Part shown: piece after piece, positions 7,552 through 60,870 of the stretch
How the letters are laid out: every line of letters starts with the position of its first letter
Numbering within the stretch: the first letter of the stretch is position 1
Assembly: GCF_035083965.1 (NCBI RefSeq)
Contig: NC_089740.1
Coordinates: 9,044,596 to 9,108,595 of the forward strand
Length of the DNA: 64,000 nucleotides
Direction: 5' to 3'
DNA from: Branchiostoma lanceolatum
Taxonomy: Eukaryota
The notes under the pieces: generated by a model
Seen by the model: the letters and a program-made list of their open reading frames with translations, nothing else
What the model was told of the DNA's origin: nothing
Databases searched by the model: none
Made by a program: the position numbers and the translations under genes

Positions 7552-8173
7552 GTGAGGACTGTGGGGAGGGGGGCATCATGATATGACGGAAACAAAGTCG
7601 TTTAGTCGTGACGTTGCATAATTTCTAGAATCACATCTTTTGCTGTTTTCACTGACACCATTACCGTGTTGGATTTTAGTGTCGTACATTTTGCCCTGTT
7701 TCTCATACAATGTGGATTTGAAAATACTTTCGATACGATTACTTGAAGAATAATTTACTCTTGCACAAAAGCATGTATGGGTCATAAATATTTGTATGCC
7801 CAGGATTATCTAATCTTCTGAGAGATTATGTCCTGATCTCCATCTTAAAGCTGAATTTTGTTTGATGCTAAATACCACTTATTCCCTCCTTTTTTAATTG
7901 AAGTTCATTTCCTTTCCAGTGGCATAAGCAAAGCTCAAAGGATACATATCCATGGTCACTTTGTCAAGTCAATGGTGTGAAATTACAACAAAATTAATAC
8001 CCAGTTATTGATACATTGATGAAAGCTAGACATCTTGGTAAACAATATCAAAAGTCAAACAAATTTCTACCACTGGATTCGATACGGAGATCAATAACGT
8101 ACGACCAGCGCACGACGAATGTGACTGCTATTGGACCAGGTCTGAGAATGTGTGTTTTACCTTATCTGTACAG

Positions 8174-8270
8174 GTGTGGGCCCTGCCAGAAGATCGCCCC
8201 ATTCTTCAACCAGCTGAGCAGTCGCTATCCGACAGTTGTGTTTGTGAAGGTGAATGTGGACCAGTGCCAG
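8174..8270 (+). CDS. TXNL1: TXNL1 exon 2: (W)CGPCQKIAPFFNQLSSRYPTVVFVKVNVDQCQ, thioredoxin active site
   Basis: Acceptor tgtacag| and donor CAG|gtcagt. Contains the CGPC redox motif. Collinear with the human TXNL1 N-terminal Trx domain. Confidence 0.9.
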
Positions 8271-8284
8271 GTCAGTCTGAAGAA

Positions 8285-8500
8285 GGCATTTTTGACACCC
8301 ACACTCACACACATACACACAGTGATACACAAATACACACACACATACTCACAAATACACACACACAAAAAACAACACAACAGATATACAAACACACGCA
8401 CACACACACACACACATACATGTACACACAAACACACGCACACACAAACATGCACACACATACACACACAAGCACACACCCTAATGAACATGATAAACAT
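8285..8500. repeat. Imperfect CA-rich compound microsatellite in TXNL1 intron 2
   Basis: acacacacatacacacagtgatacacaaatacacacaca... Confidence 0.85.
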
Positions 8501-8830
8501 AGACAGGGTTTTTTCTAGAAAAATCAAACAAGAGGGAGCACACACAGGCGAATGAGTGAATTCTAGGTCTTTATGGAAGAATCGATCGCTGAGGGAAGGC
8601 TGTATGCTGGGGATTTAGCTAAAATCTGAATTTGACAAGGGGGTGCTGGGCTGAAACAAGAGGGCGCAGCGCCCCTCTTTCCCAATTTAGATGAACCCCT
8701 GATAGAAACATACACACATACAAAACTTCACATACACTTATATAGAAAACAAGACCTTCTTATTAATGAAGACGATAAATACATTTAGCCTAATATCAGT
8801 AATATTCCCTTTTCCAATGAACATCTGCAG

Positions 8831-9013
8831 CTAACGGCATCGTCCAATGGCGTGCGAGCGATGCCGACGTTCCTGTTCTTCCGTAACAAGACGAAGGTTG
8901 ACCAGCTGCAGGGGGCTGACCAGAACAAGCTGGAGGAGAAGGTGAAGAAGTGGATGGGGGAGGAGGAGGAGGACGGGGAGGAGGGGTCAGGCGGGGTCGG
9001 AGTGCCTGGACAG
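8831..9013 (+). CDS. TXNL1: TXNL1 exon 3: LTASSNGVRAMPTFLFFRNKTKVDQLQGADQNKLEEKVKKWMGEEEEDGEEGSGGVGVPGQ
   Basis: Acceptor ctgcag| and donor CAG|gtcagt, 61 codons in phase 0. Matches human TXNL1 ...SATPTFLFFRNKVRIDQYQGADAVGLEEKIKQHLE, followed by the acidic linker. Confidence 0.9.
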
Positions 9014-9627
9014 GTCAGTTCTTCTTAAGATTTGAAGTTTGGTAAGATTTTCAAACTTATTTAAGGGAAGGATTGAACTTTTAAGAGGGTAGATTGGGGG
9101 TCCTTTATGTCTTATTCTATTAATTATAAGCTGACGAAAAAAGAGACTCATTATTACCTCCGTGATTGGGGGTATTCAGTGTGTGTGTGTCCATGACTCC
9201 ATCTGTGTTTCTGCAGTTATTACCTTCACTGAGAAGGTTGTTTTGCACAGCGTTTGTGAGAGTGTCCTTCTGTGTACACGATAACTCGAGAATGTCTGTA
9301 TATATTGGTAGATGGGTAGGTCTTCTTGAGACCTCGAAATGATTAGATTTTGGGCCCCTTTGCAACTTGCTATGCATGGGACTGGAACAGAACTTCCGCT
9401 CTTGATATTTCATGTTCTGAACATGCTATGGTCATGATTTTTGAGATGTAGATCTTGGGAGGGAGAGTAAGTCATGTACGTTTGGGACCCCTAGTTTCCA
9501 TATGATATGCACAATTGATGAACTACAATTAAACAAGACATACGAGATGTTCTAAGTATTTCACAGACTCAAACTCTTGTTGTTATTTGAGTCTTGAAGC
9601 ATCTGTCTATGATTCCTTTATCCCCAG

Positions 9628-9820
9628 ATGAACTTGAACTCCATGATCATGAAGTCTGGCTGTGAGTGTCTGAACGACAGCGATGACCACCCCTTCAGCC
9701 ACTGCCTGGACAAGGGTGGACAGTACCTGGAGTCTGACTGTGACGAACAGCTCATCATGACTGTTTCCTTCAACCAGCCTGTCAGACTCCACTCTCTCAA
9801 GATCCAGGGGCCTGATAACG
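9628..9820 (+). CDS. TXNL1: TXNL1 exon 4 (start of PITH/DUF1000 domain): MNLNSMIMKSGCECLNDSDDHPFSHCLDKGGQYLESDCDEQLIMTVSFNQPVRLHSLKIQGPDN(G)
   Basis: Acceptor tccccag| and donor ACG|gtacgt. Near-identical pattern to human TXNL1 NKAGCECLNESDEHGFDNCLRKDTTFLESDCDEQLLITVAFNQPVKLYSMKFQGPDNG. Confidence 0.9.
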
Positions 9821-10046
9821 GTACGTATGTGTGGCTAATTATCGATAATTGTATGGGTCCATCTCGGTGTGAGTGCGCATGCTGCCTGACACCTATCATT
9901 CTTGTTGTAGCTGTGTGTCTGTATCTGAGTATAGCTGGTATAACACACCAGTAGCATAACACACCATCTTCTTTTATGATCACTGTCTTTTAGTGCTTTT
10001 ATTTTCTAACTTTCAAACTTTCTGTCTCCTTTTGTACCCAAACTAG

Positions 10047-10140
10047 GCCAGGCAGCAAAAACAGTGAAGATCTTTATCAACCAGCCCGCCACACCAGACT
10101 TCGATGCAGCAGAGAGGAACGACGCTGTTCAACAGTTCGA
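10047..10140 (+). CDS. TXNL1: TXNL1 exon 5: (G)QAAKTVKIFINQPATPDFDAAERNDAVQQF(E)
   Basis: Acceptor aactag|, donor GA|gtgagt, phase 1 to 2. Matches human GPKYVKIFINLPRSMDFEEAERSEPTQALE. Confidence 0.85.
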
Positions 10141-10523
10141 GTGAGTGAAACGGAATCACTTTTTCAAAGCAAGATGATATTAATGCAAGCAACATTGTTT
10201 GAATTCAATGATATTTGGGAAAGTGTGATGGAACTATGGTTCCGCATTTTTAAAAATGCTACTGCTAGCAAAAGTTGAAGTAGACATGATACCACAGTAT
10301 AATGTTTAAGAGAGCAGTAGACAATGGTTTCTATGACTATAGAAATCAGTACACAATTTTACCATGTACACTTGAGACATCATTGTTTCAAAATCAAAAG
10401 CAACAATTCAAATTGCTTTGATGTACCGGAGTATGCATAATTGTTAACACTTTTTATGTCTGTTTTCTTCTTACTTCAGTTTCATTTGCCAGACTTAAGA
10501 TTTGTCATGCTCTATTTGTGTAG

Positions 10524-10602
10524 GTTAACAGCAGAGGATGTGAAGGAAGACGCAATCATCAACCTCCGATATGTGAAGTTCCAGAACATACAAAATGTCA
10601 CT
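10524..10602 (+). CDS. TXNL1: TXNL1 exon 6: (E)LTAEDVKEDAIINLRYVKFQNIQNVT
   Basis: Acceptor tgtgtag| and donor ACT|gtaagt. Matches human LTEDDIKEDGIVPLRYVKFQNVNSVT. Confidence 0.85.
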
Positions 10603-10785
10603 GTAAGTCAGTAATCATTTTCTCAGTGATGGAACTTCGAAGTTACATCTATGCCATTCCATACATGTAGAGTTAGAATTTCTCCCTTTCCAAAGTAGTG
10701 ATAATTTGATTCACATCCATTTATTTCAGGTTGATAGTACATTAAGATGTTCAAGACACCTGTTTCGTTTTTCCATGACCCACAG

Positions 10786-10890
10786 ATATTTGTTAAAGAC
10801 AACCAGGGAGATGAGGAGACCACAGTAGTCAACTACCTAGGCTTCATTGGAACACCCGTAACAGCTACCAACATGACCGAGTTCAAAAGG
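10786..10890 (+). CDS. TXNL1: TXNL1 exon 7: IFVKDNQGDEETTVVNYLGFIGTPVTATNMTEFKR
   Basis: Acceptor cccacag| and donor AGG|gttggt. Matches human IFVQSNQGEEETTRISYFTFIGTPVQATNMNDFKR. Confidence 0.85.
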
Positions 10891-11151
10891 GTTGGTATCT
10901 GTTAATGTTTGGTTTAATCAGTGCACTGCCTAGTATTATCACACTAGTTCTGTTTTGAGATTAAATGAAGTTATTATCTTATAGGTTTGTGTACAAAGGA
11001 CTTTAACTTTGTTATCCAGTGAATGTACCAACCTGATGAAACTATCACAGAGATGTACATATACTGATATAGATTGTCAAGAGACCACATACTGCATCAC
11101 AGTAGATTATGACAAGAAATTGTATTCATTTTTCTTTTTTCCTTTTTCCAG

Positions 11152-16768: not shown

Positions 16769-16969
16769 ATGAGAAGAACGTTTCTCTTCCTCGCGGCTGC
16801 TGTCCAGTGCGCGTGCGTACTTGGCCAGTTGCAGGGATGGCCGGACGCTAACATCTGTTCCCCCGGCCCCAACACTACTGTGCCCCTCCCCACCATACCC
16901 AGCAACTTCGAGACCAGAATAGAGATCACCATAGAAGCTGTGGACGGGCAACCCAAGAAGACAATAGAG
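16769..16969 (+). CDS. Novel type I membrane glycoprotein, exon 1: MRRTFLFLAAAVQCACVLGQLQGWPDANICSPGPNTTVPLPTIPSNFETRIEITIEAVDGQPKKTIE (signal peptide)
   Basis: ATG followed by a hydrophobic h-region typical of a signal peptide. Donor GAG|gtaaga. A second in-frame ATG 18 nt upstream at 16751 is an alternative start. Confidence 0.7.
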
Positions 16970-17446
16970 GTAAGACTTTTTTTTTCTTTAGAGTTGATAG
17001 AGATAATGAAATAACGAAAAAGAACAATACATTCTCATTCAGAAATGTATTTTCTTAAACATCAAGATAAATCGGGTCCACGTATGAAAATGTGTATATA
17101 ACAATATGATGAGGTTGATAAATGGCTTATTATATGTACCCCTTTACTTTACTTTTACTTTGATACTGTCAGCCTTCTGGCATGATTTTGCAAAGAGATA
17201 TTTATTTCTTGATACTATAATTATTTTGGCCCAGGATATGTAGTAGGTCTATTAATCAAGTAGGAAGCTTTTTTTTTACATTCGCAAAACAACTAAAAGC
17301 ATGGCAGCACCAATATTAGTATGTTGAATGTTAACTATCATCTATCGATGCCTATAGTTGATGACCTTTTACACCTGACCTTTTAAAAGTCACGAACTTT
17401 AACATCTGACTTTATCTTATGATGACCTTTCACATCTGACCTTCAG

Positions 17447-17561
17447 ATGTGGGAGTTTTTCGACTCTACGAACAACCGTGGCCTGATTGGCATAATGGCG
17501 AGCGGTAACTATGGTTACCAGATCTACAACTACCGAACGAACGAGATCTACGACATCCAGG
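17447..17561 (+). CDS. Novel membrane protein exon 2: MWEFFDSTNNRGLIGIMASGNYGYQIYNYRTNEIYDIQ(G)
   Basis: Acceptor cttcag| and donor G|gtacga. In-frame continuation in phase 0 to 1. Confidence 0.65.
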
Positions 17562-17784
17562 GTACGAGAACTTACCTTGGACCATACTATCATTACAGGG
17601 CTGGCGACAGCAAATACCCGTCTTGTTTTACCATTGTTGTGAATTACTGCTATATGTCAAAATTGACTTATGAGAATTCTGTTTGTGATCGAGTTTGGTA
17701 ATCTATTGTAGATTGCACTTTCTACATCTTTTGATAGTGTCTTAAAGATATGAAGACATAAGTTTTTTCTCCTTTCTTGACCAG

Positions 17785-17850
17785 GTGTGGCCTGTGTGCA
17801 GCAGCAGACTGTCAATGGACAGACGGTCACCATGCCGGGGCCGTGTATGA
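17785..17850 (+). CDS. Novel membrane protein exon 3: (G)VACVQQQTVNGQTVTMPGPCM
   Basis: Acceptor tgaccag| and donor A|gtaagt. Phase 1 to 1. Confidence 0.6.
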   Translation: MWPVCSSRLSMDRRSPCRGRV

Positions 17851-18388
17851 GTAAGTCTATTTTTTTCTTTTGTTTGTTGCTTTCGAAATGTTTGCTTCTG
17901 TGTCAGTTTCTGTCTGAATACAGTAGAGTAGCAGGAAGTGAAAAGAAAATGGTGTAACCGCAGACTGACAGGAAGTAGAGGTCAAATTTGAGGTCAGAAT
18001 GCCCCCCCCCCCCACAGGATAGGTCAGAGGACCCAGAGATGTCTCAGAATAGGTTATCTTATTTCCCGTCTTCGATTTCCGGCTATATGTTTGCATGGTG
18101 CCATATGAGAGCCAGTAGGAAAATGTATCACACAGAATCAGCAAGAAATTTATCATCGGTGAATAGAAAAAAAGATTTACAAAACTAGAAACATATCACC
18201 GAGGTATGAGATCTTCGAATTGTTAGCATTGTTACCTCAAAGGGTTTTCAGGATTTACAATGGAGCTTTGAAGAAAGCAGATAGAATCAGTATGATGATG
18301 ATAACTTTAATTTTTGTGGGCTCTATGGCCTTTTTTGTTTATCTATTTATTTGTTTATTTATCTATTGTTTGCTTGCTCATCCCCCAG

Positions 18389-18509
18389 ACACGGTGTGTG
18401 TGACTGAGTCCATGAGTGACGGGAACACCTTCCTGGTGGGACACAAGCTGGAGAACGGCACGCTCCACATGTTCTCTACTGCGCAGGCGCTCTGGTTCGA
18501 CGCCAGTCG
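18389..18509 (+). CDS. Novel membrane protein exon 4: (N)TVCVTESMSDGNTFLVGHKLENGTLHMFSTAQALWFDAS(R)
   Basis: Acceptor tcccccag| and donor CG|gtaagg. Contains two NxT sequons. Confidence 0.65.
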
Positions 18510-18728
18510 GTAAGGGCATATGACGTCATGAGCACATCCGCCGCCATATTGGTGTCCTTATTTGCATTTTATTTTTTCAGTGAATTGTAGCTAAAGCTTC
18601 TACCGCAAGGATATCATTTGCAATAAGTTTTCCCTCAAAAAAAGCAATGTCAAACGCGTCCTTCGTTTGTGCGTAATACATCAAAGAAATAACGTTTTGT
18701 GTAACTGAAGTTCTTGATTGTATTTCAG

Positions 18729-18827
18729 ACTACCCATCACGTATGTGGGAGAAGACGTAGTCCGCGGGATTCCCGTACAACACTGGCGCCAGTGTAACTT
18801 CATCAACAAGTGGTCATCTACCTTCAC
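18729..18827 (+). CDS. Novel membrane protein exon 5: (R)LPITYVGEDVVRGIPVQHWRQCNFINKWSSTF(T)
   Basis: Acceptor tatttcag| and donor AC|gtaagc. Confidence 0.65.
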
Positions 18828-19190
18828 GTAAGCACACAACAACGTGTTAACAACATTCGACAAAATAGCAGAGCAGAGTTGTTTGTTTTGTTTGATTGTT
18901 TTAGATTGAAATAGAAATGTGTCTTATCCCTAGTCGCACATGTGCACAGAGTAGGCACATTTTATGAGGTTCAGCTTCCATGAAGCTAAAGTTTTTTTGG
19001 CAGTCGCTATTTCTGACCGTTACACAGAGAAGCCTTGAGTGTCAGAAAACAACTTGTGTTGTCATATAAAGTAAAATATGCTAGTCATCTTTTTAGCAGA
19101 ATGTCTATACGTAGAGAATGGTGACCAGGAAATCAAAACAAAGGGTAGAAAACATCTGTAAACAGCACATTTCTTTCATTTTAACGGCAG

Positions 19191-19392
19191 GGTGGATTAC
19201 TACTGGAGTAAGCCAGTCGCCTGGGTATCTGCCAGCGGTCCAGCAGCGCCCTCTGTCCCCGTGCGTGTTGTAGTGCAGGGCAGTGGGTGCAGCCCCACCG
19301 CAGCCACCTGTTCTCGTCGCCGTGCCTTCAGAAGGCAGTACGAGTTCACCTTCTTCAGACCTGCTCTGACCGTCGACGGAAAGATATTCCAG
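19191..19392 (+). CDS. Novel membrane protein exon 6: VDYYWSKPVAWVSASGPAAPSVPVRVVVQGSGCSPTAATCSRRRAFRRQYEFTFFRPALTVDGKIFQ
   Basis: Acceptor ttaacggcag| and donor CAG|gtaaac. Matches the ORF-track frame. Confidence 0.7.
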
Positions 19393-19770
19393 GTAAACTT
19401 TAATCGTTATCTATTCTGAAATAAAGTGGATGACTTTGTTCTTTTTTTTTATTGATGTAAATCAACTATTATAATATTTTCAGTAGCACCCAAACTATTC
19501 CGAGCCCCCCAAAAAATATTTGCATAAAAAACTATTAGAATTATTTCGGGCCGGACGGAGGACGGTACAAACTTCCAAGTACCTTTGACGCATTACTGTG
19601 CTCACGTGTCCAAATAGATTACGTCCGAAATGGGTTACGTCTTTGAGTCGGCTGAAAATTCAATTATTCTAAATTATTCATTTGTATTGATTCTACCATG
19701 ATTTGATTTTAGCTTCAATATCTCTAGGAAAGGAATTACATTGTACTTATTTCTTTTCCTCCTGTTCCAG

Positions 19771-19911
19771 CCGCCAGAGAACGTGCTGTGTCTGAATGAG
19801 AAGCTGTCCCTGTCTCTCCCTCCCCTGCCCGACCGGTACGCCGTCAGGACAGAGTACCTCACCAACATCCCCAGCGCAGGGGGGTATCAGACCGTCATCG
19901 CCTACTATGAT
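19771..19911 (+). CDS. Novel membrane protein exon 7: PPENVLCLNEKLSLSLPPLPDRYAVRTEYLTNIPSAGGYQTVIAYYD
   Basis: Acceptor cctgttccag| and donor GAT|gtaagt. 47 codons in phase 0. Confidence 0.7.
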
Positions 19912-20263
19912 GTAAGTTTGGGTGTCCAATTTTCCCATGATTACATGCAGATATCAATCTAATGTGACTTATACTTATACAAGGACTAAGGCCAGGAGAA
20001 CAATACATCTTAGAACGTAATATTCTTAGATACAGAGCAACAAGTCAGTTACTGAAGATTAAACAGTCGCTTGCTACTAGTGCAATGAGAACCTTAGGAA
20101 AAGAATGAAACATTCATGTACTTGTCAGCTGCATGACCTGGTAGTGGTACCCCTACCATTTCTTTATGACTTTGAACTTGCATATTTTCACATTTTTTTT
20201 CATCATTTGCTGCATATTTAATAGAATTAGGATTAAAACACAGAGGAAAATTGTTCCTTTCAG

Positions 20264-20354
20264 ACGTGGTACGACTACGGCTACAAACTGTCCCGGATGG
20301 ACTTCCTCGTCAACTTTGAGATCCCGGTTCGAACCATCCAGGACTTCAACACAG
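20264..20354 (+). CDS. Novel membrane protein exon 8: TWYDYGYKLSRMDFLVNFEIPVRTIQDFNT(G)
   Basis: Acceptor ttcctttcag| and donor G|gtcaga. Confidence 0.65.
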
Positions 20355-20523
20355 GTCAGAAAACTAATATTCTTTTTGTCAACGCCTTAAGGATAGAGCC
20401 AAATAAGAATCATATTGTATAGTACAAAAATATTCCATTCAGTTTTCAACGGTCAGTTTTTGCTTCAAACAACAATTGATAGGACCTTGCTGTCCATGAC
20501 AATGTACGTTTGTTGATATCCAG

Positions 20524-20684
20524 GTATTGAGTACCAGATTCTCCCCACCACCGGAAACTGCAGTGTGACACCCATCTCCAACCAGACCTGGGACACCATC
20601 TTCACCGACCCAAACCACGTGCGCATGCGCAACCCATTCGAGTGGTTCATGACTGACAAGTACCCACCCTTCTACCAGGGCAAG
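20524..20684 (+). CDS. Novel membrane protein exon 9: (G)IEYQILPTTGNCSVTPISNQTWDTIFTDPNHVRMRNPFEWFMTDKYPPFYQGK
   Basis: Acceptor gatatccag| and donor AAG|gttggt. Two N-glycosylation sequons. Confidence 0.7.
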
Positions 20685-21083
20685 GTTGGTTCAGCTGTCT
20701 TCTAAAAATAAAGCATCAAATGGGATATCTCTAAGCATCTTTACAAAGCCCCTGTCACGCCTTCGACCTTACCACGACTTTGCTCCGGGCCACTCACCAA
20801 CCGTCTGCGCTGGGTTGACAATAATCTGGAATCCATCATATTCTAGCTCTTTATGGCCCCCACGATCGCATCCAAGCAGAATATTACTTTTACATGTTTG
20901 TTTGATTGAACAAAAGTAATGGTTGGCAAGTACACAGTACCTATGAAGCTGATGTGTATCGCTGGGTTCGGGTTACACAAATAGGTAATTACAGAGAAGG
21001 AAACTGCACCTTAAAACCTGTCTCCACTAGTTAATTTGTTGAATGTATGTGATGTTGATGTTTTATGTTGACCTCTGTTGCAG

Positions 21084-21185
21084 CAAATGACCCGAGGCAT
21101 GCGCACTGACGTGTGGCTGGCAGCCCGCGCAGATTGGCCCCCGAGTAACCCTCAGCAGAGCGAGTTCACTTACTACTACTCCTCG
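21084..21185 (+). CDS. Novel membrane protein exon 10: QMTRGMRTDVWLAARADWPPSNPQQSEFTYYYSS
   Basis: Acceptor ctgttgcag| and donor TCG|gttagt. Confidence 0.65.
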
Positions 21186-21411
21186 GTTAGTCAGCTTATT
21201 AAAACTCTTGCCCCGTTTGATGGAATCATCATTGAAGTTTTGTTGTTCCAGCTTTCTCTTTAACACTCTGCCTACTGCTTGACTTAACAACCATCTTAGC
21301 ACAATGAAGGTTAATGTCTGCTGTTGCAACATATAGGTCTGGAAACGCCTGATCGCTGAATTAGCTGCCAGAGAATATTGTATGTAACGTTGTCATATCG
21401 TTTTCCTCCAG

Positions 21412-21483
21412 GCGGAATATCAGCACTACATGGGTTCCCTGGAGGAGAGACGAGTTCCCATCAAGCTGCAGATCAGGGTCAAT
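21412..21483 (+). CDS. Novel membrane protein exon 11: AEYQHYMGSLEERRVPIKLQIRVN
   Basis: Acceptor ttttcctccag| and donor AAT|gtacgt. Confidence 0.65.
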
Positions 21484-21890
21484 GTACGTATGAGTGGTTT
21501 AGTAAAATCTATGAATAAATGAAATGAAATGAAATCTACAAGCAGATGTTGGCCTGGAGGATCGTAACGTTTCCTAGCTGTTCTAACAATCATTCAAACT
21601 TTAAGAGCAACACCCAAACATGTTCTTGTGAGAACTGTATCTTGGGTCCAATTATTCATTTGATAGGCCAAACTTTTAGGGAATCAGCTGCATTTATAAA
21701 GAAAGTAAAGAGTCATGTTCATGATGATTAAGTTATGTAAAGATCTAAATCCAATATGTAAAATCTGCTTGTATGATATTATAGTATATATATACAGAGT
21801 CTTGTCCAGTACATCTTCTATTTCCTTATAAATACAAGTAGTTTTCTATCTCTTTTGTTTCTTTATTGAAATATCTTTATGCACCCCCAG

Positions 21891-22038
21891 CCCATCAACT
21901 CCGCGTCTGCAGACAAGGCGAACATCTTCACCTGGAACTACTTCAAGTTCGTGGAGGAGCACCCCTACCTGTGGGTGTTCGACACCACGCAGTGTTTCCC
22001 CGAGGAGAACAAAGTCAACATCATGTTCACCGTACCAG
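21891..22038 (+). CDS. Novel membrane protein exon 12: PINSASADKANIFTWNYFKFVEEHPYLWVFDTTQCFPEENKVNIMFTVP(G)
   Basis: Acceptor gcacccccag| and donor G|gtttgt. Confidence 0.65.
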
Positions 22039-22335
22039 GTTTGTTGGATTGTTTGGCCAAGTTGAAGTTGTAGGACTGATTTCAATTTTGTCCTACAACT
22101 TTCATGATTGATCAGTATACAAATGTTAAATTCTTGATAATTCAGACCAAATTATTTCAGTGATTTTTTGCCCATTGAGGGCAACTGCAAGAAAATTATG
22201 TCCATTTTTAATCACGGTTCTCTTAAAAATGCAGACATATACCTACACTGATTGTTGGTGTCACGGGCATCTGCATGGTCAAGTCATGGTGCTTGTTATA
22301 GCAAAGTTTTACCATCGTTTCTTCTCTCTTGCCAG

Positions 22336-22445
22336 CCGACTACAAGGCTGCGTTCCAGCTGAGTGAAACCCTGGCCCGTGACGTGTTCCTGTACGAGCTG
22401 GCTCGGGTTATGACGGTCTCTCCTCTCCGCATCCAGAATATCGGG
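22336..22445 (+). CDS. Novel membrane protein exon 13: (A)DYKAAFQLSETLARDVFLYELARVMTVSPLRIQNIG
   Basis: Acceptor ctcttgccag| and donor GGG|gtacaa. Confidence 0.6.
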
Positions 22446-22814
22446 GTACAAAATGTCTTAATCTTCTCATTATAACGTTTTCATAGTGCATTTTTTATGA
22501 TAGCAGAAGAAATCAAAGCAATCAGAGATGGCAGACTTCACTCCCTTCACCCAACGTTAGAAACACACATAGACAGGCAGACGGACACACACACTGAGAG
22601 ACACACTAGAACACGACGTCACACCCTTAGAGTGGAGTAGTGGTAGAATAATGGCAAATATCAGAAAGTATAAGCAATCATACAATAGTAAGCAATCAGC
22701 ACGAATGTTGCTGTTAAAACTGGCACCTGACATAATTCGTTTATAATCTAGCATTATGCATGTTTTTAACCCTTATCTATAGATGTAACCATATATGTAT
22801 CGCCATATTCACAG

Positions 22815-22991
22815 TTCCGCTACACAAGCACAAGTGACGTCACCGTTCGGTTCACGTTGCTGGGCGTTCCCCCCGTCACTGGCAACGTCGCCGTCGTCAA
22901 ACCGCAGACGTCATTGGACGTGGCCAGGACCCTGCTGAAGAACGCCATCGACACCAACAGCTTCCGGGTCACCATCCAGCTGCAGAATGTG
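22815..22991 (+). CDS. Novel membrane protein exon 14: FRYTSTSDVTVRFTLLGVPPVTGNVAVVKPQTSLDVARTLLKNAIDTNSFRVTIQLQNV
   Basis: Acceptor attcacag| and donor GTG|gtacgt. Confidence 0.65.
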
Positions 22992-23412
22992 GTACGTCAT
23001 CCTTTCTAACCAATGGGTATTCTTGAATCTGAAATACCACGACCTGATTGGTTAGAAATTGGTCGACCAGGTCATTCTTTTATAACCAATGGCCGTGCTT
23101 GAAGACGCAATACTACGGCCTGATTGGTTACTTGTAGGCCAATGACACGGCTCTCTTGGAGCACAGACCATGCTTATACGATTAAATATAGGATTGGTCA
23201 GAATGGACCATCGATGTCGTCCTTATAAAACCAAGGTTTGTGCTTGAATTTGAACTGCCTTGGCTCCAGACTCTCTGGCTGATCAGAAACTAGCTATTCG
23301 CTGATCACGAGCAGTATTGTTACAGATGTATTCATATTGATGACTATTACTGATATATCACATAATCAGCTATATGTTCCGGATATTGAATGTCGTCATT
23401 TCCGTTTCCCAG

Positions 23413-23503
23413 CTGACCGTGGTTGTGCCTGCCTCCCCGGGCACCATCGTGGAAAACGCTCAATTTGATGACCAGTCATCTACCATGACAGGCTTCTCCG
23501 GCG
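23413..23503 (+). CDS. Novel membrane protein exon 15: LTVVVPASPGTIVENAQFDDQSSTMTGFSG(G), juxtamembrane stalk
   Basis: Acceptor tttcccag| and donor G|gtaaga. Phase 0 to 1, matching the functional TM exon at 24092. Confidence 0.65.
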
Positions 23504-23689
23504 GTAAGAATGGTTCTCTTCTTTATCAACATCTATTTCAGTAGATAAAGAAGACATAGCTTCAACTACGGTTGTGTGTAAATCAACCAATTAGCCTTTA
23601 CGACAGAATATAAGCTTATACCGCTCTCGATATCTTTCAATGGGCCATAATTTACATGGTTAACTATGCGTTTAGTCGACTATAAGCTT

Positions 23690-24100
23690 TGCTATTGTTT
23701 CCCGTATGTGCCATGGATGGCTTGCCCACTGGGCTGCTGATTGTGACCATCTCCCTGGGCCTTGGCGTGATGTTCCTGCTGTAGCTGTAGGAGGTTTTCA
23801 TGACTCCAGCTGCAGTAGAATGGCGAAAAAATGTTTCTGTTCTTTGTAGGTCTGCTGATCGTGACTATCTCCCTTACCCGATGTTCCTGCTGCAGCTGTA
23901 GGATGTTTCAGCAGCAGTACACTGACGTAAACTGTTTTTGTTTCCCGAAGTTGCCATGGCTGGTTTGGCCATCGGGCTGCTGATCGTGACCATCGCCCTG
24001 GGTCTCGGTGTGATGTTCCTGCTGCAACTGTAGTATGAGTCTATGACTACAGCATCAGCACAATGATGTAAACTGTTTTTGCTTCCCGTAGGTGCCATGG
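23690..24100 (+). repeat. Tandem array of 4 copies (about 110-130 bp each) of the TM-encoding terminal exon plus flanking intron. Copies 1-3 are truncated or disabled (start about 23700, 23850, 23945). Copy 4 is the functional exon 16.
   Basis: Copy 1 encodes AMDGLPTGLLIVTISLGLGVMFLL* but its acceptor is mutated (cccgtaTgtgcc versus cccgtaGgtgcc). Copy 2 has an internal deletion. Copy 3 encodes VAMAGLAIGLLIVTIALGLGVMFLLQL* with a weak aag acceptor. All three terminate at ctgtag directly after the TM segment. Confidence 0.75.
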
Positions 24101-24312
24101 CTGGCTTAGCCATCGGTCTGCTGATCCTGACCATCGCCCTAGGTCTCGGCGTGATGTTCATGCTGCAGCGCGGGTTCGACGGTGCCGCCAAGGCTCCCGC
24201 CGTGGCGCGCAGCGGGGGAGGAAACACCGCGCCTACCGAGGAGAAGGTGGCAGGCGGGCTGCCCACACAGATGGAAACCATCGAGGTTCCCACAGATGAT
24301 ACCAGTGCATAG
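24092..24312 (+). CDS. Novel membrane protein exon 16 (terminal): (G)AMAGLAIGLLILTIALGLGVMFMLQRGFDGAAKAPAVARSGGGNTAPTEEKVAGGLPTQMETIEVPTDDTSA*
   Basis: Acceptor cccgtag|. A 23-residue hydrophobic TM helix is followed by a basic stop-transfer RG and a ~50-aa cytoplasmic tail. TAG stop at 24310-24312. The full spliced CDS is 2118 nt (705 aa), with all 15 junctions canonical and in frame. Confidence 0.7.
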
Positions 24313-24492
24313 GTTGTGTATATTTGTAGTAGGAAACAAAAAAAAAATGTACTTAAGAAATGATACAAACAATTGACAGATAGGTAAATAGCAATTAAAT
24401 GGATGTTCGTTTCCAATTTTTTCTACAGGTTCACGAAAGTTAAGATTAATAGAATGGTTAAAGTAAGTGCTTTCTTGTATCCTTGCCCTTCC

Positions 24493-24498
24493 AAATAA
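24493..24498 (+). promoter_or_regulatory. AATAAA polyadenylation signal for the membrane-protein gene
   Basis: ccAAATAAAActg lies about 180 nt downstream of the stop codon. Confidence 0.5.
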
Positions 24499-25819
24499 AA
24501 CTGTAATTGTTGAAAATTCAAATATTTCAACAGTCAAAGCAAATTAAATGAATGACAAAATGAGTAGGTCAATTATAAAATATGTATATGTTGTAGTATG
24601 ATGCAAAATTTGTGAAATATATATGGAAAACACATAAACGTGAGTCAACATGATAAGTAAACTAAGTTTTATACAAGCTTCACGTGCCAAACAATTCCAG
24701 TATCTGTCATGCGGTGTAGCAGTGTACAGGGCCTGACAATTAAATCTTTCTTTAATTAAGAAATGGAATAGATTTCGAGTACAATGGTCAAGTCTATGTC
24801 CCAAGTGAACTGAGAAAAATATTTTAGTTTAGGTCTGAATGAGTATTTGATTTTGTTATATTGTACTAAAACTCACTCCCTGGCTGATAAATAACAAGTT
24901 TATAAAACAGTCAGTCTACCTAGTCCCTAATACCTATGATACCTAGTGTAGGCATATGTAATGGACGCGTGGCAAGAATTATTTGATTAAGTTTATTAGT
25001 AGCTCCTTAAAATGTTTTCAACATCTATCACTCTTGCCCTTTGTTATATTTTTCTTCAGAAAATGTAAATCAAGCAACACTCTGCTCCTCTATCTTACAA
25101 AACACAGTCCACCTTCAAGTTAATGACTGAAGAAACCATAAATGTATTTGGAAAGTATTTGGAAAGTTAATTGTTGCATGTAAAAGTTTTCCATCAGTGA
25201 CAATAAACTACAAAGTCTCAAACCTTCGTTATGCTGAAAACTATTCTTCTTCATAGGTCTTCCTCCAAATATTTCAGATATATCATGGTTTAGAATAAGC
25301 TGTTGAACTCCATATACTTGCTCAACTACGACTTTGAAAATATTTTTTGGACCACAGACCTCCAGAAATATGTGAAACAAAGTATCTCAGCATATGTTTG
25401 TACATGAATTTGCTAGACTTCATTACTAACATATATATTTTTTCGTTTTCATATTGTCTGCTTAGGATGTTGACAATGACATCTATAAACCGACTGACGG
25501 TTTCAACTGCGCAATCGCTAGGTCAAAGGTGAAGATCCCTAAGGTGTAATCAGTCAAGAACGTGCTAACTTCATGTCCAGACGTGTTTTGTTTATGTCTC
25601 AGGGGCTTTCAGCTTTGACATATTACCCACAATGCATCACAATGTACATCCGCAGTTGAAATCGTGAACCGCCTTATTATACTCGCATATGTTTTCGGGA
25701 TTACAGATATAAATGAATGTTCCGCAAGTTGTGAAACACGAAACTTTAGAACGATAGTCACAGTTCTGTACAATCATATGAAAACCTTTTAAAACCTGAC
25801 ATAAGACTAGTGCATCAAC

Positions 25820-26340
25820 TTCACGCGTATTCCTGTTTTCTCATTGTAGCCACAAGACCACTATAGACATGCCTTTTATATGGATTGAGTACATTAAACC
25901 AGTAAGCAAATCCTTTGAAACCTTCTTTGAGCCAACGATATCAAATTCACGTATTCATGTTTTCTCATTGTAGCCACAAGACCACTATAGATATAGCTCT
26001 TTTATGCATTGAGTGCATTGAACCTATAGGCAAATCCTTTGAAACCATCTTTGAGCCAAGGATATCAAATTCACGTATTCCTGTTTTGACAGTCTTTGAC
26101 AACTGAGTAATACTGTGCATTGAACTGTTTCAAAATTCACAGTAAGACTATCCTCCTAAATCCTTTGTCGCGACGAGCAAATCAAAGTCATATATTTCTG
26201 CTTTGTGATAATCCACACAAAGGAATAATCTATGGGTGCAGTTACGTGAAATAAACTGTCTCCAAATTCACTCTGAGTAAATCCCGTGAAACCCTACTTT
26301 GAGGCCAGCAAATCAAGTTCTTGCTATGTATTCTTGTTGT
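25820..26340. repeat. Degenerate tandem repeat, about 110-bp unit (…cacgtattcctgttttctcattgtagccacaagaccactatagatat…caaatcctttgaaacc…)
   Basis: Two near-identical units at 25830-25945 and 25945-26060, with diverged copies up to about 26340. Confidence 0.75.
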
Positions 26341-37419: not shown

Positions 37420-37750
37420 CAGTGACCTATAACCACTGAATAAGCCACCGAGAGAGCGAAGCGATGCAACCCCAGGGTCATTGACCTGTTGCTAATGATA
37501 GTCTATGATCACCAAATAAATCCCCGAGCGAGTAAAGGGATAGAGACTGATCAATGCCTTGTAACCACCGCATCAACTACCGAGTGAATGAAGCGATAGA
37601 GACTGACCAGTGACTTGTAACCTGCGAATAAACTACCGAGTGAGCGAAGCGATATAGCCTGGTCAATGACCTATAACCAACGAATAAACCACCGAGCCAG
37701 CGAAGCGAAGACAGCCAGGTTACTGACCTATAACAATTCAATAAACTATA
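37420..37750. repeat. Minisatellite, about 62-bp unit x 5 (..aataaaccaccgagcgagcgaagcgatagagactgaccagtgacctataacc..)
   Basis: Direct repeat visible by eye. It lies immediately intron-side of the NCS exon at 37346. Confidence 0.8.
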
Positions 37751-43226: not shown

Positions 43227-43376
43227 TGCTTTAATCTTGGCGTCGCCGTGCTCAAAGTGGTTACAGTAGAAGCTGACGAACTGACCCTCTGACAGTTGCC
43301 CGTCCGGACAGTCCGTCAGGAACAGTCGGTACCACTGTTTCACCTCCGCAACTGTGAAGTGAGTCACCCTCGCCAG
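43227..43376 (-). CDS. NCS-family (recoverin/frequenin/KChIP-like) EF-hand protein, internal exon: LARVTHFTVAEVKQWYRLFLTDCPDGQLSEGQFVSFYCNHFEHGDAKIKA (N-terminal pseudo-EF-hand region)
   Basis: Minus strand. Acceptor ctgcag|CTGGCG and donor GCA|gtgagt. Matches the NCS-1 pattern [44 protein letters not shown] as recalled. Confidence 0.75.
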
Positions 43377-44460
43377 CTGCAGAGGAAGATTAAGGCAGAA
43401 ACAGTAAATGAACAGTAAATGTCCGGACAGTCCGTCAGGAACAGTCTGTACCACTGTTTCACTTCCGCCACTGTGAAGTGAGTCACCCTCGCCAGCTGCA
43501 GAGGAAGATTAAAGCAGAAACAGTAAATAACCAGTAAATGTCCGGACAGTCCGTCAGGAACAGTCTGTACCACTGTTTCACCTCCGCTACTGTGAAGTGA
43601 GTCACCCTCGCCAACTGCAGAGGTTAAAGCAGAAACAGTAAATAACCAGTAAATGTCCGGACAGTCCGTCAGGAACAGTCTGTACCACTGTTTCACCTCC
43701 GCTACTGTGAAGTAAGTCACCCTCGCCAACTGCAGAGGTTAAAGCAGAAACAGTAAATAGACAGTAAATGTCCGGACAGTCCGTCAGGAACAGTCTGTAC
43801 CACTGTTTCACTTCCGCCACTGTGAAGTGAGTCACCCTCGCCAGCTGCAGAGGAAGATTAAAGCAGAAACAGTAAATAACCAGTAAATGTCCGGACAGTC
43901 CGTCAGGAACAGTCGGTACCACTGTTTCACCTCCGCTACTGTGAAGTGAGTCACCCTCGCCAGCTGCAGAGGTTAAAGTAGAAACAGTAAATAATCAGTA
44001 AATGTCCGGACAGTCCGTCAGGAACAGTCTGTACCACTGTTTCACCTCCGCTACTGTGAAGTGAGTCACCCTCGCCAGCTGCAGAGGAAGATTAAAGCAG
44101 AAACAGTAAATAACCAGTAAATGTCCGGACAGTCCGTCAGGAACAGTCGGTACCACTGTTTCACCTCCGCTACTGTGAAGTGAGTCACCCTCGCCAGCTG
44201 CAGAGGTTAAAGTAGAAACAGTAAATAACCAGTAAATGTCCGGACAGTCCGTCAGGAACAGTCTGTACCACTGTTTCACCTCCGCTACTGTGAAGTGAGT
44301 CACCCTCGCCAGCTGCAGAGGTTAAAGTAGAAACAGTAAATAATCAGTAAATGTCCGGACAGTCCGTCAGGAACAGTCGGTACCACTGTTTCACCTCCGC
44401 CACTGTGAAGTGAGTCACCCTCGCCAACTGCAGAGGAAGGTTAAAGCAGAAACAGTAAAT
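43377..44460 (-). repeat. Satellite of 9 tandem units (114-120 bp). Each unit is a truncated copy of the NCS exon (75 nt encoding LARVTHFTVAEVKQWYRLFLTDCPD) plus its ctgcag acceptor and about 40 bp of upstream intron.
   Basis: The motif gtccggacag recurs at 43421, 43541, 43655, 43769, 43889, 44003, 44123, 44237 and 44351. Two unit subtypes exist (...gcagaggaagattaaag... and ...gcagaggttaaag...). The array abuts the genuine exon, which is the last and only complete copy. Confidence 0.9.
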
Positions 44461-50799: not shown

Positions 50800-51190
50800 A
50801 GCGGAGTATTAGATCTGAGCATTTGCTTCCAGGGGACGATGCGTTAGATGATTTAAAAGGAGGATGTCAATTGGACATATCAAGGGAAAGGTCGTTACTT
50901 AAAGAAAAGACTGCAAGGGACATGTATGTGTGACCAAGGTTTTGAAAATTTGTTTCCAGGGGACGATGCGTTTGATGATTTAGAAGGAGGATGTCTCTTG
51001 GATATACAAAGGGAAAGGTCGTTACTGAGAGAGAAGAGAGTACAAGGGGCATAGATGTGGGACCTGAGATCTGAGAATTTGCTTCCAGGGGACGATGGTT
51101 TGATGATTCAGAATGGGATGTCTCTTGGATGTATTGAGGGAAATTTTACTGATAGAAATGAGTGGAAGGGACATGCATGTATAGCCGTAT
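50800..51190. repeat. Tandem repeat, about 130-bp unit x 3 (ttgcttccaggggacgatgcgttagatgatttaaaaggaggatgtc...)
   Basis: Copies start near 50822, 50952 and 51082. Confidence 0.8.
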
Positions 51191-56759: not shown

Positions 56760-57300
56760 TCGTACATCGCTGTTGTTTCTCTCATGATAGTCTCGATGAA
56801 ATAACGCACGGCAAAATAATCTCCTACACTCGTACGAGACGACAACACCTTATGATCAATATAAAAAAAGGTTTGCTGTCATGACGAGTTTTTCTGTGCA
56901 ATTTCTGGATCCTTTCAAGAGGCAACACAGTACAGAAGTTGCTATCAATGTTGGTTCTGTCATAGTCTCGTTGAAAAGTTCTACGACAAAATCATCGTGT
57001 TCACTCGTACGAGGTGACAACACCTTATGATCAATATAAAAAAAGGTTTGCTCTCCTGACAAGTTTTTCTGTGCAATTTCTGGATCCTTTCAAGAGGCAA
57101 CACAGTACAGAAGTTGCTATCACTGTTGGTTCTGTCATCGTCTCGTTGAAAAGTTATACGACAAAATCATCGTGTACAATCGTACGAGGCGACTGCACCG
57201 TACGATACATGAAAAGTTTTTTTCTCTCCTGACAAGTTTCCGCGTGCCATTTCTGGATCCCTTCAGGAGACAACACGGCACTGACGCACTCCCACACATC
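56760..57300. repeat. Tandem repeat, about 175-bp unit x 3 (..caagtttttctgtgcaatttctggatcctttcaagaggcaacacagtacagaagttgctatca..)
   Basis: Near-identical units at 56868-57042 and 57043-57212, with partial units on both sides. Confidence 0.85.
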
Positions 57301-60539: not shown

Positions 60540-60870
60540 AGGCACTCCACCAAATCCTATTAAGCGGCAACAGTAAATTGCTATTAATATAGTCTGTAGA
60601 TTATGGGCCTTTACAGTTTTGAGGGTTTTCCGGTGGAGTTCTTAATGGGTAAAAGATCAAAGGCAAGGGTAGATGGTATCCGTACTTTTGAATTATTCCG
60701 TTGCAAATCCTCTTAAGCGGTATGAGTAGATTGCTATTAATATAGTCTGTAGATTATGGGCCTTTACAGTTTTGTGGGTTATCCGGTTGGTTTCTTAATG
60801 GGTAAAAGATCAAAGGCAAGGGTAGATGTTTATCCGTACTTTTGAATTATTCCGTTGCAACTCGGGGATT
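60540..60870. repeat. Tandem duplication, about 165-bp unit x 2 (..taagcggcaacagtaaattgctattaatatagtctgtagattatgggcctttacagttttgagggtt..). Diverged copies at 61090-61340.
   Basis: Units at 60550-60712 and 60713-60870. Confidence 0.8.

Follow-up and report, generated by a model that had tools for sequence, protein, structure and literature searches.

In Branchiostoma lanceolatum, a gene for a membrane protein carries four head-to-tail units across its last intron/exon boundary, at positions 23690-24169 of the window (the whole stretch of 64,000 nucleotides of DNA that was analysed), each unit consisting of the 3' end of the last intron and the transmembrane (TM)-coding start of exon 16. Splicing to the third unit instead of the fourth gives, residue for residue, an isoform that is already present in RefSeq and that ends in a membrane anchor without a cytoplasmic tail. 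In the reading that we prefer, to which we assign about an even chance, the array is a by-product of tandem-duplication instability, and its third copy is a splice-competent, annotated and probably minor alternative terminal exon encoding a tail-less anchor.

The host gene comprises 16 coding exons, every intron being GT-AG (Table 1), and the spliced window translation equals XP_066270204.1 (isoform X1) without mismatch, which confirms the numbering of exons 15 and 16 in the initial annotation, an earlier reading of the same stretch. Isoform X1 is 705 aa long and consists of a signal peptide, an ectodomain of ~630 aa, one TM helix and a 46-aa cytoplasmic tail. The description of the gene as a novel membrane-protein gene was overstated, given that it is annotated in RefSeq and belongs to a broad, uncharacterised animal family: of 1.8 billion representatives scanned in full, 459 are related to it at E<=1e-3, of which 100 reach E<=1e-30. 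Stretches of open frame from 16.7 to 24.3 kb, when roughly concatenated, match Branchiostoma proteins only. Many of the relatives are 600-700 aa in length and align from end to end, with a signal peptide, an ectodomain of ~600 aa and a C-terminal TM segment, and family members have the TM motif GYSxGxMAGLGIGM in common. Precomputed tables list PF25898 (LolA_2nd_metazoa) and PF25899 (DUF7959) for the orthologues; a Pfam-A hmmscan of X1 and of the tail-less isoform X2 (P0012) returned no family, the two models being perhaps absent from the scanned set. A sequence search of the PDB yielded no relative of the host protein, a literature search for DUF7959 yielded no paper and, to our knowledge, no function has been attributed to the family. 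Upstream of the gene, at window positions ~8000-11000 on the + strand, lies a thioredoxin plus PITH domain gene (TXNL1-like), the same neighbour being found in B. floridae and B. belcheri; (CA)n microsatellites inside this gene mimic THTHTH reading frames.

Table 1. Features of the host gene, its last intron and the tandem array, in window coordinates unless locus L005 (the B. floridae paralogue) is named; a slash marks a splice junction
Feature	Position	Strand	Remarks
Host gene coding region	16769..24312	+	16 coding exons; XP_066270204.1 (isoform X1, P0009)
Coding exons 1-4	16769-16969, 17447-17561, 17785-17850, 18389-18509	+	
Coding exons 5-8	18729-18827, 19191-19392, 19771-19911, 20264-20354	+	
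Coding exons 9-12	20524-20684, 21084-21185, 21412-21483, 21891-22038	+	
Coding exons 13-16	22336-22445, 22815-22991, 23413-23503, 24092-24312	+	
Exon 15 (penultimate)	23413..23503	+	donor CGGCG/gtaaga, phase 1; common to X1 and X2
Last intron of X1	23504..24091	+	three extra units fill its 3' 400 nt
Copy 1	23690..23790	+	degenerate acceptor gtat 23704-23707; TM-like segment from 23708; dead
Copy 2	23791..23901	+	AG acceptor 23848-23849; exon-like part from 23850
Intronic part of unit 3	23902..23950	+	branch-site-like CTGAC 23922-23926, pyrimidine tract, aag acceptor 23948-23950
Copy 3	23951..24034	+	27 codons (VAMAGLAIGLLIVTIALGLGVMFLLQL) and TAG 24032-24034; intact
Intronic part of unit 4	24035..24091	+	ancestral intron 3' end, motif CTATGACTACAGCATCAGCACAATGA, pyrimidine tract, tag acceptor
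Copy 4 (true terminal coding exon 16)	24092..24312	+	TM helix 24092-24169; stop codon 24310-24312
First poly(A)-signal hexamers past the gene	24394..24499	+	ATTAAA 24394, AATAAA 24494
Sites of motif CTATGACnACAGCAGCAGTACAATGA	23787-23849, 24040-24065; L005 14398-14442, 14771-14823		

Inspection of the sequence places all four copies at the positions given in the initial annotation. Tandem Repeats Finder reports a period of 141 with 88% matches and a score of 420 over 23909-24167; a blastn search of the window with the copy-4 unit recovers copy 3 at E=6e-39 and copy 1 at E=1e-21; and the four TM cores, at 23731, 23849, 23974 and 24115, are in register, their spacings being 118, 125 and 141. A dispersed repeat or transposon was rejected, the copy-4 unit matching only locally within the window.

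The four copies have fared differently. Copy 1 has, as had been claimed, lost its acceptor AG through a G to T change, reading ...cccgtaT/gtgcc where the true site in copy 4 reads ...cccgtaG/gtgcc. The internal deletion attributed to copy 2 proves to be two deletions, of the first 24 nt and of a further 7 nt, which leave the copy frameshifted (GLLIVTISLTRCSCCSCRMF..., then a stop); its surviving AG acceptor (tttgtag/gtctg), the use of which would produce a frameshifted 44-aa end, had been overlooked. Copy 3 (aag/TTGCC...) retains its acceptor and, joined to the phase-1 donor of exon 15, reads VAMAGLAIGLLIVTIALGLGVMFLLQL followed by a stop, exactly the tail-less TM end ...VMFLLQL that had been foreseen. 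Only copy 4 continues into the tail-coding part (24170-24309), again as described, and the 46-aa tail (...GGLPTQMETIEVPTDDTSA) is conserved in the B. floridae and B. belcheri orthologues. The statement that each extra copy is followed by a 'ctgtag' stop holds only in part, as copy 1 terminates one codon ahead of this hexamer, at TAG 23782-23784, and in copy 2 the hexamer is out of frame. Copies 3 and 4 are distinguished by single bases (G versus C at 23986/24127, C versus A at 24019/24160) and by a stretch that reads CAACTGTAG in copy 3 (24026-24034) and CAGCGCGGG in copy 4.

In the mechanism that we propose, a segment of ~141 bp across the last intron/exon boundary, made up of ~63 nt of intron (branch site, pyrimidine tract and AG) and the first 78-81 nt of exon 16, would have been tandemly duplicated to give the four head-to-tail units. 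Each unit would constitute a self-contained 3' splice-site module, and the poly(A) signals downstream would be common to all. The code for the tail adjoins the rightmost unit only, which for that reason remains the conserved terminal exon. Units 1 and 2 are dead, the former through loss of its AG and the latter through deletions and frameshift; unit 3 is intact, with a weaker acceptor. When exon 15 is spliced to 23951, the frame would close at TAG after 27 hydrophobic codons, leaving a membrane-anchored product devoid of the 46-aa tail.

The four-unit layout recurs unchanged in an independent B. lanceolatum assembly (L003, GCA_927797965.1), at 98% identity and with no indels over 831 bp, and an assembly artefact was rejected on this ground. 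Copy number is equal in the two assemblies, the AG of copy 1 is missing from both, and the AAG acceptor, open frame and stop of copy 3 are kept in both. Between them, the true exon has seven differences, all synonymous and none non-synonymous, and copy 3 has one synonymous change together with two amino-acid changes (A>S, G>S), a handful of substitutions that points to relaxed constraint on copy 3. At the TM residues that differ between copies 3 and 4 (V/L, L/M), comparison with the orthologues identifies copy 4 as derived and copy 3 as ancestral. The first 178 nt of the last intron (23504-23681) are identical between the assemblies, and the other 653 nt (23682-24330) contain 25 differences. 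At several of these sites the states of copies 3 and 4 are interchanged, a pattern that suggests exchange among the units and could reflect gene conversion.

Exons 1-15 followed by 23951-24034 translate exactly to XP_066270205.1 (isoform X2, 659 aa), the C-terminus of which is the hydrophobic segment without cytoplasmic tail, ...FSGVAMAGLAIGLLIVTIALGLGVMFLLQL. Because the match is exact, the tail-less product is already annotated and is not a hypothesis only; and because X2 is present in RefSeq, the copy-3 acceptor may be used regularly, which speaks against regarding it as a by-product. Among the extra units, usable signals coincide with an in-phase open frame in copy 3, copy 2 having an AG but a shifted frame and copy 1 having no AG. 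The branch site of copy 3 (CTGAC) is consensus-like and its pyrimidine tract is the same as that of copy 4. An acceptor matrix scores copy 3 at 3.4 and the true acceptor at 5.5, the gene's other acceptors ranging from -2.1 to 16.6 (leave-one-out), and ranks copy 4 above copy 3 and copy 3 above copy 2, although this matrix is crude, having been built from 14 acceptors of the host gene, and is too coarse to decide usage. No poly(A) hexamer occurs on the + strand between 23187 and 24393, hence none inside the array, so that all four acceptors would share one 3' end. Under the exon-junction rule, a stop codon in the last exon normally escapes nonsense-mediated decay (NMD); the stop of X2 would lie in the last exon, and its transcript should accordingly escape EJC-dependent NMD.

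It is conceivable, and in our judgement somewhat unlikely, that the array is pure exon-duplication debris, that no extra copy is used in vivo and that X2 is an annotation artefact of mis-aligned allelic reads. Several synonymous sites of the true exon differ between the assemblies, and the L003 allele of this exon resembles reference copy 3 in its first 25 nt. Junction reads from that allele with an overhang of 15-35 nt would match reference copy 3 no worse than copy 4, and at 20-25 nt the fit to copy 3 is strictly better (1-2 mismatches versus 2-3). Read mis-mapping between the copies is, from this resemblance, a plausible source of X2 support, which may be partly or wholly composed of such reads. 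The artefact would, however, be confined to short overhangs, since beyond ~40 nt the true exon fits L003-allele reads better than copy 3 does. A second argument for debris is the copy-3 acceptor, AAG/T, which differs both from TAG/G in copy 4 and from the usage of the gene as a whole (CAG in 14 of 15 acceptors, TAG in one); its matrix score nevertheless lies inside the range of the gene's real acceptors, and its branch site and tract are like those of copy 4. The amino-acid polymorphism in copy 3 fits debris as well, as does the lack of any alternative isoform in the clustered protein annotations of B. floridae and B. belcheri, even though B. floridae has 8-10 intact upstream acceptors. Against these points stands the consideration that, as a rule, an alternative isoform enters RefSeq only with transcript support for each of its introns. 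Among the matches of the full-length protein search, there were no transcript-derived fragment clusters.

Comparison with other amphioxus genomes covered the orthologous last intron in two haplotypes of B. floridae (L001, L004) and three assemblies of B. belcheri (L002, L006, L007) and that of the B. floridae paralogue (L005). The distance from exon 15 to the tail-coding part is 810 nt in both B. lanceolatum assemblies, 1310 nt and 1245 nt in B. floridae L001 and L004, 987 nt in the paralogue, and 820, 812 and 564 nt in B. belcheri L002, L006 and L007, respectively. The B. floridae intron contains ten extra copies in L001 and eight in L004, built on a unit of ~67-69 nt that runs from intron -22 to exon +45. 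These copies end '...ACCATC TAA AATG' and would encode half a helix only; in many of them the hydrophobic stretch is interrupted by D, R, N or stop codons, and the AG is kept in 8 of the 10 extra copies of L001 and in all 8 of L004. A single, internally deleted copy lies ~300 nt upstream in B. belcheri L002 and L006, the last intron of L007 has no extra copy, and an extra TM copy is likewise missing from that of the B. floridae paralogue. Copy number therefore varies within B. floridae (10 versus 8) and within B. belcheri (1, 1, 0), the unit junctions differ among all three species, and the units cluster by species in a neighbour-joining tree. The paralogue itself is a lineage-specific tandem duplicate (L005 4001-15032, P0003, 701 aa), the tail of which ends ...GGLDNIDNPNYSSTA (NPxY-like) instead of ...GGLPTQMETIEVPTDSTSA; in the B. 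floridae RefSeq assembly (L004 3493-14239) the orthologue is split into products of 137 and 565 aa and looks like a fragmented gene model.

Conservation of copy 3 in the orthologues, a check that the initial annotation had itself proposed, fails: the B. floridae and B. belcheri copies are differently bounded, decaying or absent, and the assemblies compared contain no intact tail-less copy orthologous to copy 3. With no intact counterpart in these genomes, the complete full-helix tail-less frame of copy 3 is specific to B. lanceolatum. The initial annotation had left a choice between decaying exon duplications and a source of alternative C-termini, and each half of it describes part of the array, as copies 1 and 2 have decayed and copy 3 is the annotated C-terminus of X2, but an unconserved one.

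The length of the cytoplasmic tail was surveyed in 100 family sequences with a C-terminal hydrophobic segment. In 18 of them, X2 itself being one, six or fewer residues follow this segment (for example ...FFFFK); in another 28 the tail is short, at 7-15 residues, and in many of these it ends (V/I)PYxxQ(E/D); the amphioxus tail ranks with the longest of the set. The motif recurs in many of the family proteins P0013-P0161. About 17% of family members are naturally tail-less and, since such members are common, a tail-less form is a natural state in the family and a functional reading of X2 stays alive. The retention of the copy-3 signals in both haplotypes, the ancestral residues of this copy and the existence of tail-less relatives all weigh against a mere by-product, the last of these making a tail-less form plausibly functional.

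An adaptive explanation would take this further and hold that copy 3 is maintained as an alternative C-terminus for a regulated form, TM-anchored without tail or GPI-anchored, that is uncoupled from tail binders. The annotation of X2, the intact frame, acceptor and stop in both assemblies and the frequency of tail-less members in the family all speak for such a form. By inspection only, the end of X2 is also GPI-signal-like, with small residues (FSG-VA) followed by MAGLAIG and by an 18-residue hydrophobic end with no charge after it. Changes of anchorage within one gene have precedents, as NCAM isoforms arise by alternative splicing and CD58 is a second example of an anchorage switch. The TM isoforms of NCAM are of 140 and 180 kD and its GPI-linked isoforms of 120 and 125 kD (PMC2290859). 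Like NCAM-140/180 and NCAM-120, X1 and X2 represent a tailed TM form and a bare hydrophobic end obtained from one gene by choice of 3' exon; unlike in NCAM, the alternative exon arose recently as a partial copy of the TM exon, and GPI attachment of X2 is putative. We nevertheless consider maintenance by selection unlikely, in view of the weak acceptor, of copy-3 polymorphism that looks relaxed (A>S, G>S) beside the synonymous-only changes of the true exon, and of B. floridae and B. belcheri, which are without an intact copy and whose own copies are half-helices or contain charged residues. A bolder version, in which the array is a ready-made anchorage switch, created from a copy of the TM code alone, between tailed X1 and GPI-anchored or tail-less X2 and its recurrence in three species is the mark of repeated selection for tail-less output, seems to us very improbable.

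Tandem exon duplication is reportedly a source of alternative splicing, as Kondrashov and Koonin in 2001 and Letunic and colleagues in 2002 are said to have described. The present array is similar to such cases in that homologous copies lie head to tail in the same gene, each having come with its own acceptor, and RefSeq lists one of the extra copies as an alternative terminal exon. It differs from them in that two of the three extra copies are dead and none is conserved between species. Furthermore, duplication was limited to the 5' part of the terminal exon, which leaves the alternative product truncated rather than substituted. X1 and X2 also resemble the outcome of alternative 3' splice-site choice within one terminal exon, with acceptors at 24092 or 23951 and a common poly(A) site; unlike ordinary alternative 3' splice sites, the upstream acceptor would have come by duplication, together with its branch site and tract, and not by point mutation. 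Tandemly duplicated, mutually exclusive terminal exons have been described in Drosophila pip (Ivanov & Pervouchine 2022, PMC9013439). In contrast to a cluster of mutually exclusive exons, the copies here are partial starts of a terminal exon without an in-phase donor, and a mutually exclusive arrangement with a hidden donor was rejected, the sole candidate (CT/gtagta) being weak and its joining to any downstream AG shifting the frame. That the repeated 3' splice-site modules serve as decoys, competing with the true site, possibly via RNA structure, and thereby tuning the full-length mRNA, is most improbable of all. In its favour, competing structures do regulate the duplicated terminal exons of Drosophila (PMC9013439), a branch site, pyrimidine tract and AG would come with each unit, most extra copies of B. 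floridae keep their AG and the intron motif CAGCAGCA has short complementarities to the end of the TM code (CTGCTGCAG). On the other side, a search for competing docking/selector structures gave only short CAG/CTG complementarities, and predicted folding does not surpass that of shuffled controls, with z=-0.83 over 23900-24180 and z=+0.47 in the paralogue. Moreover, the number of copies is polymorphic, the structure of the unit is unconserved, and young neutral copies would likewise be expected to retain an AG.

Returning to the array as a by-product of tandem-duplication instability, it resembles minisatellites, with head-to-tail units of 67-141 bp, number and structure that are variable between species and, in B. 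floridae and B. belcheri, within them, signs of inter-unit exchange and similar arrays nearby. Two features set it apart: copy number is constant in the two B. lanceolatum assemblies, and the unit spans a functional intron/exon boundary, so that a splice acceptor and an open reading frame come with each unit. The 64-kb window contains at least six further tandem arrays, with periods of 56-349 bp, and this abundance of neighbours suggests that duplications of such size are common in the B. lanceolatum genome. The array at 43302-44460 has a period of 115 (also 234 and 349), about ten copies and 94% matches; five more tandem duplications, with units of 56-175 bp, lie at 25826-26087, 37524-37746, 50811-51143, 56825-57276 and 60551-60860. 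With these, the array at 43302-44460 and the present one counted together, the density is roughly one per 9 kb.

The age of the array may exceed that of its present units. The intronic part of unit 4 matches the 3' end of the B. floridae paralogue intron (score 32 versus a shuffle maximum of 25-26), and the intron motif CTATGACnACAGCAGCAGTACAATGA, located 30-55 nt upstream of the terminal acceptor, is common to the B. lanceolatum units and the paralogue. The paralogue intron contains the motif once more, as a 45-nt relic (L005 14398-14442; score 38 versus a shuffle maximum of 30), with no TM remnant after it; in the B. belcheri intron no such relic was found. From these matches, the present arrays may go back to an older duplication that was then turned over by deletion and unequal exchange, and an ancient shared array is only partly supported. 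A local hotspot is a possible alternative, in view of the CAG/CTG complementarity between the intron and the TM code. That independent accidents should have placed arrays at the same boundary in three species is unlikely; this weighs against a mere by-product and hints at an old array, a local hotspot or selection. For the B. lanceolatum array itself, we infer a near-neutral origin, with X2 probably a minor form.

Tandem exon duplication and alternative terminal exons are already well known and, in other respects, the case is an ordinary one. It holds a practical lesson, namely that spliced-read mapping and isoform annotation are easily misled by near-identical exon copies where the genome is highly polymorphic. 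Across the three species, the fate of the copies is that most decay and one is currently usable. If X2 is real, it would be a clean and datable case in which a single step produced a new protein isoform, the duplication bringing a complete acceptor together with a frame that soon meets a stop in the adjoining duplicated intron, thus removing the conserved tail.
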